From positions 1 through 42,135 of the IMG/VR virus record IMGVR_UViG_2558860274_000001: a stretch of DNA of 42,135 bases, one strand, 5' to 3'. Positions 30,507 to 33,802 of this stretch are shown here, one piece after another (position 1 is the first letter of the stretch; each line of letters starts with the position of its first letter). Origin of the DNA: a virus (taxonomy: Duplodnaviria > Heunggongvirae > Uroviricota > Caudoviricetes). A program made the translations under genes and the position numbers. The notes beneath the pieces are model-generated. The model saw nothing but the letters and a program-made list of their open reading frames with translations. It was not told the DNA's origin and did no database searches.

Positions 30507-30528
30507 CAAAAACCCGCCGAAGCGGGTT
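30507..30528 (-). terminator. Rho-independent terminator downstream of hokD
   Basis: Minus strand AACCCGCTTCGGCGGGTT followed by TTTTGC; same hairpin core as at 28678. Confidence 0.6.
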
Positions 30529-30596
30529 AAGTGCGGGTGCGTTGAGGATGCCTGGCACATCAGAGGTGGCGGGAGATTACTCCCCCGCCGGGTCTC

Positions 30597-30752
30597 TTAC
30601 TCCTCAGGTTCGTAAGCTGTGAAGACAGCGACCTCCGTCTGGCCGGTTCGGATTCGTACCTCGCAGAGGTCTTTCCTCGTTACCAGTGCCGTCACTATGA
30701 CGGTTAAACAGATGACGATCAGGGCGATTAACATCGCCTTTTGCTGCTTCAT
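30597..30752 (-). CDS. hokD: Hok-family type I toxin (HokD/RelF-like), 51 aa
   Basis: Manual translation MKQQKAMLIALIVICLTVIVTALVTRKDLCEVRIRTGQTEVAVFTAYEPEE; below the ORF-track size cutoff. Confidence 0.85.
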   Translation of the reverse strand: MKQQKAMLIALIVICLTVIVTALVTRKDLCEVRIRTGQTEVAVFTAYEPEE

Positions 30753-31041
30753 AGCCTGCTTCTCCTTGACCTTTTGGTCCGTAAGAGGCTAATCTCTATG
30801 TGTCGCATAGATATGGCCTCAGATTAATGTTAAGCGTCTTGCAGGACGCGTAATGTTAACTGGGGCTTTTCTCTATCTGCCGTTGGTGTTCATGCCTGAG
30901 GCAGATAGCCTCAAGCACCCGCAGCAATTCTACTTAACTCTCCTTTTCCCGCAAATCGTTTTTATCCCCAGCGGCAAATCGAATACACCACCAGCGCCAC
31001 CGCCATTGCAATTCCCATCGTTGCGAATGCTTCAGGCCAGG

Positions 31042-31761
31042 TCATTGACTCACCTCCAGCGGCGGTTCTGGTAGCGGCATCCAGTGAGTTACTTGCCCAA
31101 GGTCATTACCCGGACTAACTGCTATACCTCCGCGTCGGAACGTGTCTCCGATATAGCGTGCGGAATATATTAATGGCCCAGCCTCGCTGTCGATATTCAC
31201 CGAAATAAGCACGTTCTGGCTCTTTTCAGGCGTTCGCTCACTGCAGCTTATCCAACTATCCGGAGCTCCCGGAGAGTTGCCCGACAGCTCGTTCAACTTG
31301 TAAGTCTGGCTTACAGGCTCGTCACCATTAAGCATGGCGTTGCTCCGCTCTATACCATCCAGCGCGATTCGCAGTGCCTGAATTGTGGTAGTGCTATCGT
31401 TTGGGGCTATTCCATATCGCTCGAATACAGCGATATGACCGCGCATAATCTCAGGTGTAAGTTCTTTGTAAGCATAAGCAAGAGACGCTGATGCATTATC
31501 CGGCACAACCGACGCAGGCGCGGCAGCATAAACAGGAATAACGTCCGCTTGCTCTTTATTGCTTTCATCCGTTAAAGCCCAGAATAATTTCCCGGCTGGA
31601 TGTTTGAAAATATAAGCAATTGGTTCTGCTTCCAGCGATGCCAGAGCAATTTTGAATAACTCACCCTCTACTCGTGCCCCCCCTGAATTGGGGTGGCATT
31701 TCGCAATCGCTATTTTTAATTTAGCTTCTTCGATTAATTGCTCTTTTGTTAATTCAGTCAT
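31042..31761 (-). CDS. DUF551 domain protein
   Basis: 239 aa ending QVTHWMPLPEPP motif. Confidence 0.6.
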   Translation of the reverse strand: MTELTKEQLIEEAKLKIAIAKCHPNSGGARVEGELFKIALASLEAEPIAYIFKHPAGKLFWALTDESNKEQADVIPVYAAAPASVVPDNASASLAYAYKELTPEIMRGHIAVFERYGIAPNDSTTTIQALRIALDGIERSNAMLNGDEPVSQTYKLNELSGNSPGAPDSWISCSERTPEKSQNVLISVNIDSEAGPLIYSARYIGDTFRRGGIAVSPGNDLGQVTHWMPLPEPPLEVSQ

Positions 31762-31919
31762 TTTTCATTACCGCCCTTTCGGGCGGCCTCCTGATGTTTT
31801 GAGGGGGCAGGAATCCCTCCTGTTAAGGATTAAATTTTATTTACAGTGCTGAGATTAATTATTCAGATTTGGATTATGTTTTCTCTTTCACTTCACGCAG
31901 TCCTGATTGTTAATTTGGC

Positions 31920-32336
31920 TCACAGTATCACCTCCTGCAAACTTCCCTTCCAGAAAGCCAGCACCCGTTGCATAGCTTCGCTCTGGCGGCACTCGCGACA
32001 AATTATGTTCTGTCGTCTGTTGTAGCGACGTATTTCGCCATCTGGCAATGAATAAATCAGGTCAGGGTCGCTCTTCTTTTTCACTGCCGCTCTCGACATT
32101 TTTTTGCAGGCTTTTATCCAGTCCTTACGAGCCTGCTTCGAAGGAAATATTCCATGTCCTGAACCATATACTGCGCCACTAACTACCAGCTCTTTCGCCA
32201 GAACTTCTATCAGGTGCCTCGTTGCTCCGGTTTCATCCTCCAGTTGCTTACGTGTTTTCCGCCCATCCCGCTGTACCAGCTCCACAATGCGCGCCTTCAG
32301 TTGCTTCCTGTATTCAGGTGTAAAAACGTTTCCCAT
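31920..32336 (-). CDS. Hypothetical phage protein
   Basis: Start at internal ATG (MGNVFTPEYRK...) after RBS GTGAGG; track ORF extends to 32393. Confidence 0.45.
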   Translation of the reverse strand: MGNVFTPEYRKQLKARIVELVQRDGRKTRKQLEDETGATRHLIEVLAKELVVSGAVYGSGHGIFPSKQARKDWIKACKKMSRAAVKKKSDPDLIYSLPDGEIRRYNRRQNIICRECRQSEAMQRVLAFWKGSLQEVIL

Positions 32337-32343
32337 AAACGCC

Positions 32344-33084
32344 TCACTTTTCCGATACAACGCGACTGGTGGAATCGACAATCTGTCGGACAATATCCCG
32401 GTGTTTATTCAGCTCCCGCAGTGCTGCGCAGACGCGCTCCCACTTCTGGACACGGTTTTTTGCCCGGCGCAGTTCGCGGTTTGCCAGATGCAGCGATGGT
32501 AAAGTCAGGTCATCGGCTCGCGTTTTGGTGAACGATGGCAACGACTGCACAATGTCCGCCACAGTTTCTGTTTTAATTTCTTCCTGTATTGCAGCTTTCG
32601 GCTCTGCTGGTAAATTATCGTCCGGCATGCAGTAACGAAATTTACCGTTCTGATTTACGCGAATCAGGCGACCTTTGCTGATTGCCTGAGCCAGCGTTGA
32701 AGCCACTTTGCGTGATGTGGTACCGAACAACGTAGCCAGTTCATCCGCCGTTTGTGGTCCGCGTTGTTCAATCGTCGCGGTTAAATCGCACTCTGAGATT
32801 TTCGCTACTGTTGCTGTGGTGGTTTCTTCCGGCAGTTCTGCCTGCGCTGGCTGTTCCTGCTGAACGTTGTTATCAGCCACACGCCAGGTGTACGCGCTTT
32901 TATCAACAAAACCAGCATTTTTCAGTTCCCATAGTTCGTTAAGCACTTCTTCACGACTGATATCAAGTCGCGCCGCAAGTTCTATGGATGTGGCTTTTCC
33001 CATTGCTTTCAGTGCGTCAAAAACAGTCTCCATTAAATTTTTCTCCCGGTAAAAATCACTTCGTGATTCCTGGCTGGACGACAT
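32344..33084 (-). CDS. Hypothetical phage protein, possibly DNA-binding
   Basis: 246-aa ORF, overlaps DnaC-like gene stop. Confidence 0.45.
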
Positions 33085-33802
33085 TCGGGCGCCAGCTTTC
33101 CCAGTTAAAATTCACCCAGCGTCCGCCGTTCATGGTCATGCGATCCATAATCCGCTCACCGAGCAATGTTTTCATGGCCTCATAGTTCAGGTTTGTCAGC
33201 ATTCCCACGCTACGCATCGACGCTGTCCGTCGATCAATAATCTGGTGCAGTACCACCTGCTCGTTTTTCGTCTCACGCTGAATGCCAATTTCATCAAGAA
33301 CCAGCAGATCCACTTCGCACAGTTCCTGCAAAAATTTTTCGCCTGACTGCCCGTCGTCATAGCTGGCGTGCAGGGCACTCATAACATCAGCCACAGTAAC
33401 CACTATCACTGTCTGGCCGTCTTTCAGCAGGCGATTTCCGATAGCCGCCGCCAGATGGTTTTTCCCGGTACCAGGTTTTCCACTGAACGCGAAATTTGTA
33501 CACCCGGTCATCAGTTCATCGGCGATGGATTTTGCCTGGCTTAACGCGTATCGCTGACCGTCGTTCTGCACCTGGTAATTCGCAAACGAACATTTGCGGT
33601 GCAACGGCTGGATGCCTGAGCGATTCAGAATTTTTTCCACCCGCAACTGACGATTCAGGCGGTTGATCTCCTCGCTACGTTTCTGGCCTTCGGCAAGCTG
33701 CCACTCGCGCCACTCCGCCACCGTTCTGTATGGAGCGGTTACATGTGGCGGGGTCAGTCTGCGGAGGCGTTCCAGAACACCACCTGTCGCAATATTTTTC
33801 AC
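33056..33802 (-). CDS. DnaC-like replicative helicase loader (AAA+ ATPase)
   Basis: Walker [10 protein letters not shown], Walker B LLVLDEIG; follows O-like gene. Confidence 0.85.

Follow-up and report, generated by a model that had tools for sequence, protein, structure and literature searches.

The window considered here is a stretch of 42,135 nucleotides (nt) from a virus of the class Caudoviricetes (IMG/VR record IMGVR_UViG_2558860274_000001, positions 1 to 42,135). At 30962-31045 its minus strand carries a 27-codon open reading frame (ORF), whose start overlaps the stop of a gene for a DUF551 domain-containing protein and which is followed by a hok/sok locus. With a probability of about 0.7, we read this ORF as a real small membrane-protein gene, coupled to its upstream neighbour and autonomous, and not as a component of hok/sok. 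The predicted peptide very probably represents an undescribed family of the lambdoid and P1-like prophages of Escherichia, Shigella and Salmonella. The unit that is conserved and mobile is exactly a Shine-Dalgarno (SD) sequence, 27 codons and a stop. Direct observations on the sequence, the overlap, the SD, the conservation pattern, the mosaic contexts and the absence from family libraries and RefSeq form the basis of this reading.

The ORF runs ATGACCTGG...TGGGGATAA, opening with ATG ACC TGG CCT GAA GCA and closing with TGG GGA TAA, and encodes the peptide MTWPEAFATMGIAMAVALVVYSICRWG. At 27 amino acids (aa) it is maximal: the ATG at 31045 is the first start past an in-frame stop 19 codons upstream, so that the frame is open over just these 19 codons of the DUF551 gene. 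The junction between the two genes reads CAATGA, in which the ATG (31045-31043) and the TGA of the 239-aa gene (31044-31042) have TG in common, with an A next. A GGAGG motif lies 7 nt 5' of the ATG, within the last codons of the DUF551 gene. The best 19-residue mean on the Kyte-Doolittle scale is 2.12 and the grand average of hydropathy (GRAVY) is 1.10, which fits one transmembrane (TM) helix; the peptide has only one acidic and one basic residue. An earlier note, drawn from the letters of the window, had described a hydrophobic 27-codon ORF with one predicted TM helix whose ATG overlaps the DUF551 stop. Both parts of that description hold, and the hydrophobic ORF is conserved in 77 distinct sequences. 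No second copy was found in the window. A lipoprotein or cleavable signal peptide was considered and rejected, as the N-terminus MTWPEA is acidic, the residues Y-S-I before Cys24 put an Ile at -1 and do not fit the lipobox [LVI][ASTVI][GAS]C, and cleavage at Cys24 would leave three residues only.

The length of the ORF by itself is not significant, with 63 ORFs of at least 20 aa overlapping 29000-33500; it is the conservation pattern, not the length, that marks the ORF as non-random. IMG/VR pattern scans anchored on the first six or the last eight codons, together with annotated loci, gave 77 distinct 84-nt sequences that encode 51 peptides. When only the C-terminal eight-codon anchor was used, an ATG stood exactly 27 codons before the stop in 112 of 120 sequences and the maximal ORF was exactly 27 aa in 97, and the N-terminal motif M-[TSN]-W-P-[ED]-A recurred in this set without having been selected. 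The family consensus is M-[TSN]-W-P-[ED]-A-F-x-x-x-G-x-A-x-A-x-A-[LF]-x-V-[YF]-S-I-C-R-W-G. The other sense frames contain stops in 100% of the sequences, and the pairwise ratio of nonsynonymous to synonymous differences (pN/pS) is 0.35-0.37 in frame versus 0.82 and 1.90 in those frames. Restricted to codons 7-20, which neither anchor covers, the ratio is 0.48; column shuffling gives a null of 0.88 +/- 0.21, with a value this low in 1 of 300 shuffles. Parsimony on a neighbour-joining tree places 56, 49 and 130 changes at codon positions 1, 2 and 3 (omega ~0.35), third positions varying ~2.5 times more than first or second ones. Further, the replacements are conservative, with a mean BLOSUM62 score of +0.45 for mismatches in the sense frame. 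Column entropy is near zero at the SD (-15 to -7) and low through the ORF, and it reaches 1-1.9 bits just 5' of the SD and past the TAA.

Length variants are mostly in frame, namely deletions to 23-25 aa and forms of 31, 33 and 35 aa that arise by (GCAATG)n-type expansions inside the helix. Three proteins of the collection (P0075, P0090 and P0077; L and P labels are ours) carry such in-frame hexanucleotide-repeat expansions (...GIAMAMAMAMAMAVAL..., 31-35 aa), and it appears that the TM helix can be lengthened by pairs of Ala-Met or Ala-Val. Conservation of the reading frame among related prophages had been named beforehand as a check on the ORF, and a lack of it as a refutation. Frame, length, start and stop are kept across the 77 sequences, and the synonymous excess falls in one phase, although the antisense phase that shares the wobble positions scores equally.

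The 84-nt block is found at 3064 places in 1609 of 5426 complete Escherichia coli genomes, with up to seven copies per genome; 162 of these places are plasmid-borne, on P1-like phage-plasmids of ~98 kb. A tblastn search recovered the peptide in 94 phage records at identities down to 59%, including Shiga toxin (Stx) phages such as 933W and VT2-Sakai, the phages BP-4795 and ArgO145, and Salmonella and Shigella phages. The taxonomic range covered is the Enterobacteriaceae, and a 15-base pattern run over 596 Gb of genome contigs gave almost only chance matches. Distant candidates (L170, L177, L145, L236 and the Achromobacter protein P0024) have E-values of 0.006-0.6 and are unproven. The peptide also stands beside lambdoid-type EaA/Ea22 genes in two records labelled as large virulent myoviruses, vB_EcoM_TH18 (133.9 kb, Vequintavirinae) and Av-05 (120.9 kb), where either the ea cassette was really exchanged with virulent phages or the assemblies are chimeric.

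The gene has largely escaped annotation. The region of the window is 99.9% identical to E. coli NZ_CP180607.1, where RefSeq gives the DUF551 gene and then hokD with no coding sequence (CDS) between them. The ORF is unannotated in all four RefSeq loci inspected, this one included, which bears out the earlier statement that it had been missed. Likewise, the records of 933W, ArgO145, BP-4795, WGPS2 and PhiR12_1 have no CDS for it, and on a P1-like plasmid the ORF exactly occupies the gap at 2005-2086 between two annotated genes. Gene callers do occasionally predict the peptide in E. coli, E. albertii, Shigella and Salmonella, either at 27 aa, under the names 'hypothetical' or 'bacteriophage' protein, or with spurious extensions at the N-terminus (40-53 aa). 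The searches for protein homologues used in-frame extensions of the 27-aa ORF taken from the window. Database labels of the type 'DUF551, partial' on the peptide proved to be contig-edge or out-of-frame calls, and apparent DUF551-peptide fusions were a clustering artefact, as the peptide is lacking from the '121-aa DUF551' proteins in the same 90% cluster. Peptide strings occur in no paper of the searchable literature, and the literature searched on the exo-xis region does not mention a 27-aa peptide.

The overlap with the upstream gene recurs across the family. The start overlaps or abuts the stop of a same-strand upstream ORF in 103 of 111 members; for upstream ORFs of at least 30 aa, the overlap is the 4-nt ATGA in 88 members and a 1-nt TGATG or TAATG in 15 more. 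A GGAGG, GGAG or GAGG motif is present in 31 of 33 distinct upstream contexts. The upstream genes themselves change: at least five or six unrelated ones precede the 84-nt block. They encode proteins that end in the DUF551 motif ...HWMPLPEPPQEVNQ and have many N-terminal architectures, a 114-aa protein that matches nothing in Pfam, a 131-aa protein of the 933W L0139 type, EaA-type and Ea22-like proteins and, on P1-like plasmids, a dATP/dGTP pyrophosphohydrolase-DUF551 protein. As these unrelated proteins finish in the same last two or three codons (VNQ or MNQ before the stop), the recombining cassette comprises the SD, the spacer and the ORF. An obligate partnership with DUF551 was rejected, because an IMG/VR scan anchored on the DUF551 C-terminus found the peptide after only ~7 of 116 DUF551 genes. 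The Pfam DUF551 match belongs to the upstream gene; the peptide itself has none.

Other genes also make use of the DUF551 junction. The DUF551 C-terminus ...HWMPLPEPPQEV encodes an SD (CAGGAGGTG) for whichever gene comes next, usually with a 1-4-nt overlap (loci L252-L360). The genes in this position are extremely diverse, and some are other, unrelated small TM ORFs (41 aa in L258 and L325, 40 aa in L275, 46 aa in L291, 50 aa in L328 and 28 aa in L355). In 933W (AF125520, 2034-2504), the annotated N-terminus of L0139 (MDNSWCVVETVTLDAATRTAAGGEL...) is an out-of-frame reading of the preceding DUF551 C-terminus. The true start of L0139 is probably the internal MENEGDNI..., located at the SD-ATG junction that the small ORF uses elsewhere.

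The near-constant overlap raises the question of whether the peptide is a membrane anchor or partner of the upstream DUF551, Ea22 or EaA protein, made in matched amounts and tethering it to the inner membrane. We consider this unlikely. The overlapping or abutting starts would suit it, and most upstream partners do end in a DUF551 domain (48 + 5 + 2 + ... of ~94 clustered). Further, natural in-frame fusions join an Ea22-like or other upstream ORF to the peptide and so yield tail-anchored forms: P0096 (143 aa), P0085, P0086, L136 (236 aa) and P0100 (206 aa), the last with its DNA checked in L361 (...ENKK-MSWPDAF...). However, the upstream partners are mutually unrelated, the 114-aa, L0139-like and EaA proteins lack DUF551, and among DUF551 genes sampled without bias the ~7 of 116 mentioned above precede the peptide. 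The fusions are rare as well: P0100 sits on one 1.8-kb contig, none of 50,697 phage records holds a full-length fusion, and the fused forms resemble 1-nt frameshift variants. A bolder version, which we hold to be no likelier, is that this widespread and overlooked family consists of phage tail-anchor micro-proteins that recruit upstream early proteins to the inner membrane, or that act directly on host membrane machinery, for instance FtsH/HflKC, the divisome or a transporter, during induction. The recruited set would then be the DUF551, Ea22 and EaA-type early proteins, some of which influence the lysis-lysogeny decision. If this were true, the exo-xis/ea regions of Stx and other lambdoid prophages would possess a membrane-linked effector, and the in-frame fusions P0096, P0100 and L136 would be a Rosetta-stone trace of tail anchoring.

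The autonomous gene that we favour is equally mosaic on its downstream side, where about ten different contexts are seen overall. In 84 evaluable distinct contexts, ~29 have a DUF4222 gene (MFALIQRGQ...) 4-5 nt on, followed by xis/int; ~27 have hok/sok within 500 nt; and ~16 have a terminator hairpin directly past the ORF stop. ParDE in opposite orientation, a 34-aa small TM ORF and unrelated genes make up the remainder. When E. coli genomes are searched with BLAST, the first base of the ATG (query 756) is the exact left edge of many alignments, and numerous alignments that contain hok alone have their left edge at query 834-861, on or beyond the ORF stop. Phage PhiR49_2 matches over the 84 nt and nothing else. 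Because of these alignment edges and the variable downstream contexts, the ORF and hok/sok are read as two separate modules, which are frequent neighbours because the slot past the ORF is a hotspot for accessory genes.

These observations bear on the possibility that the peptide is a membrane toxin or regulator of the type I kind and functionally part of the adjacent hok/sok. In size and hydrophobicity it resembles Hok, TisB, DinQ and ShoB (27 aa, Kyte-Doolittle mean as given above), a conserved Cys near one end loosely recalls Hok, and hok follows in the ~27 contexts counted above. Toxicity on over-expression is common among small hydrophobic peptides. However, hok is absent from two thirds of the ORF contexts, and hok modules lacking the ORF are found in thousands of genomes and are far commoner (13295 places, mostly without the ORF), so the linkage is facultative rather than constant. 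In addition, type I toxins form their own transcription unit with an antisense antitoxin RNA, whereas here the conserved block is the SD and ORF only; it lacks a promoter, a mok-like leader and the space for an antisense RNA, and its flanks are not conserved. The start/stop overlap, unlike the arrangement of type I toxins, would couple the ORF to the upstream gene. A single acidic and a single basic residue are also unlike pore-lining toxins such as TisB. Searches of Pfam, NCBIfam and PADLOC gave no match to a toxin or defence family, and at E<=1 none to Hok/Gef, Ldr, Ibs, ShoB, TisB, DinQ, Zor or Fst. Membership of the hok/sok system is hence improbable, and the type I toxin neighbourhood that the earlier note had offered as a clue to function does not serve as one, as each module occurs without the other.

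It is also conceivable, but very improbable, that the block is not a gene at all and instead a non-coding boundary or linker at which lambdoid modules recombine, or an RNA element. The block does lie exactly at mosaic junctions, with BLAST alignments starting and stopping at its edges, and the synonymous positions of codons 2-6 are unusually invariant. Yet the codon periodicity and omega reported above are unexpected for a non-coding linker, conservation covers the ATG, SD and stop but not the flanks, and length changes keep the frame. RNA folding across the region is unremarkable, with no excess structure (z = -0.3), and Rfam has no match over the ORF.

Several points do weigh against a selected membrane-protein gene on the minus strand. 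About 4% of the copies are disrupted, by a TGG->TAG change (phage POCJ13, L364) or a 1-nt deletion (689R5, L371, L385), and the gene must therefore be dispensable. As the sequences share ancestry and recombine, the counts given here do not represent independent events. Conservation is not one-sided on the helix (moment 0.08, permutation p=0.75); any packing of the helix against a partner is thus an idea founded solely on its small residues. The peptide strings are absent from the supplements of two enterohaemorrhagic E. coli (EHEC) ribosome-profiling papers, a weak negative given that prophage early genes are repressed under the growth conditions used. Finally, the selection test is strand-blind: the wobble-sharing antisense frame is open in 96% of the sequences and has an omega of 0.31-0.35, the same as the sense value. 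The sense (minus) strand is assigned from the conservation of start, SD and stop, the quality of the substitutions and the orientation of the operon. That the selected frame is instead the antisense ORF of 73 aa on the plus strand (30853-31074), which shares the open frame and the omega, is extremely improbable, since its start and stop lie in the variable flanks and depend on context (in six of the contexts no start codon exists), replacements in it are less conservative (BLOSUM62 -0.49 vs +0.45), its product would be a proline- and polar-rich low-complexity protein read against the operon direction, and an open antisense frame is the expected shadow of any sense frame that avoids TTA, CTA and TCA codons.

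With the small membrane-protein gene as the preferred reading, the closest counterparts in size are the single-pass membrane proteins YohP (27 aa), KdpF (29), PmrR (29), MgtR (30) and AcrZ (49). Like these, the peptide has one predicted hydrophobic helix, aromatic ends and G/A/S positions, and belongs to a class routinely missed by annotation. Unlike them, it is phage-borne, multi-copy and overlaps early phage genes, whereas the YohP/KdpF class is tied to chromosomal transporters or regulons. There is no sequence relationship either: the KdpF match is sub-threshold (E=0.029, 14.4 bits versus a cut-off of 26.85). Searches of Pfam, NCBIfam, PHROGs and PADLOC turned up nothing convincing, only sub-threshold compositional matches (PTR2, KdpF and phrog_4612). 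The last, a profile of unknown function and the best of these hits, was rejected as the same family, given that only positions 33-54 of a 57-position profile align (E=0.005-0.1, 14-18 bits) and three of six family variants have no match. A second comparison is with the lambdoid exo-xis, 'ea' and nin genes (orf60a, orf61, orf63, ea8.5 and ea22; eaA-eaI of P22), which occupy the same neighbourhood and show the same mosaic behaviour. They are early-operon genes of largely unknown function and often have ATGA-type overlaps, as does the ORF. Their products, however, are soluble, 60-200 aa long and known from genetic studies, whereas the predicted 27-aa membrane peptide is absent from the lambda-type annotations inspected. 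Judged by its sequence, the peptide falls among the small single-pass membrane proteins of bacteria and phages and stands outside any described family.

We infer the translation, membrane insertion, timing and mode of action of the peptide from these features. As the conserved block holds no promoter of its own, the peptide would be made from a phage early operon, which in the window is rightward and Rac-like (ydaT-ydaV-DUF1627-DUF977-DUF551) and in Stx phages is the exo-xis/ea end of the leftward operon. Translation would proceed by termination-reinitiation at the ATGA, by direct initiation at the GGAGG, or both, and expression from an early operon would therefore track prophage induction or infection. 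The peptide may then insert post-translationally into the inner membrane as a single helix, for which YohP, of the same length, is a documented precedent (PMC7549839). Trp3 and Trp26, 23 residues and about one bilayer apart, would sit at the two membrane interfaces. As for topology, the positive-inside rule suggests a cytoplasmic C-terminus (R25), and the rare natural fusions imply a cytoplasmic N-terminus. The invariant or near-invariant residues G11, A13, A15, A17 and S22 would suit helix-helix packing. By analogy with small membrane-protein modulators, the mode of action that we favour, though with low confidence, is such packing, either by self-association or by binding a host or phage membrane protein, and not a dedicated partnership with hok.

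Table 1. The small ORF, its upstream partner and the cargo downstream (window positions; all on the minus strand).
Feature	Position	Strand	Basis
27-codon ORF (stop included), predicted single-pass membrane micro-protein MTWPEAFATMGIAMAVALVVYSICRWG	30962..31045	-	ORF list, conservation, omega ~0.35, Kyte-Doolittle 2.12
Shine-Dalgarno GGAGG	31053..31057	-	sequence; motif in 31/33 contexts; -15 to -7 nearly invariant
ATGA start/stop overlap (putative termination-reinitiation junction)	31042..31045	-	sequence; ATGA in 88/111 family members
Upstream partner, 239-aa protein with C-terminal DUF551	31042..31761	-	Pfam PF04448, E=5e-19, C-terminal 66 residues (169-234); RefSeq 'DUF551 domain-containing protein'
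Complete hok/sok module, not part of the small-ORF module	30511..30954	-	homology to hok loci starts at/after ORF stop
Putative weak hok promoter TTGCGG-16-TAGAAT	~30954-30927, 8 nt past small-ORF stop	-	by eye; consensus scan missed it
sok	30750-30920	-	Rfam, 102 bits
hok CDS	30597-30752	-	ORF list
hok terminator	30511-30528	-	
RmrT-like 216-aa ORF	29781-30431	-	PADLOC RmrT E=5e-25; RefSeq homologue 'hypothetical'
RmrA-like 368-aa ORF, overlaps RmrT-like ORF	28697-29803	-	PADLOC RmrA E=8e-105; Pfam HTH_3 + Peptidase_M78; RefSeq homologue 'helix-turn-helix domain-containing'

The slot past the small ORF is, judging by what is found in it, a hotspot for addiction and defence cargo. In the window, a RosmerTA-like defence pair (28697-30431, minus strand) lies immediately downstream of hok. 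In ArgO145 (1709-2220) and in E. coli Ceylon31 (1409-1971), a type II toxin-antitoxin pair of the ParDE/RelE type occupies the slot in opposite orientation. In one group of six prophage contexts, a second small hydrophobic ORF separates the 27-aa ORF from hok; in the example inspected (L197), this 34-aa ORF (MSDDISLAMEGALAVIAVVGVYCLVVFLMDRLGN, preceded by AAGGAGGG) is at +36 past the stop.

Small hydrophobic ORFs are well known from phages, and none of the present findings suggests an unusual mechanism. The inference that the 27-aa ORF belongs to the hok/sok toxin system is corrected by the present analysis. As an example for annotation pipelines, the locus combines a gene-sized hole with a strong SD, an ATGA overlap and codon-phased conservation. 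If translated, the ORF would be a gene that about 30% of sequenced E. coli carry, with several copies in EHEC strains such as EDL933 and Sakai, that is also found on P1-like plasmids and that RefSeq omits. It would also be a candidate for the small-membrane-protein repertoire of Stx and other lambdoid prophages, in early accessory regions whose effects on induction and lysogeny are only partly explained.

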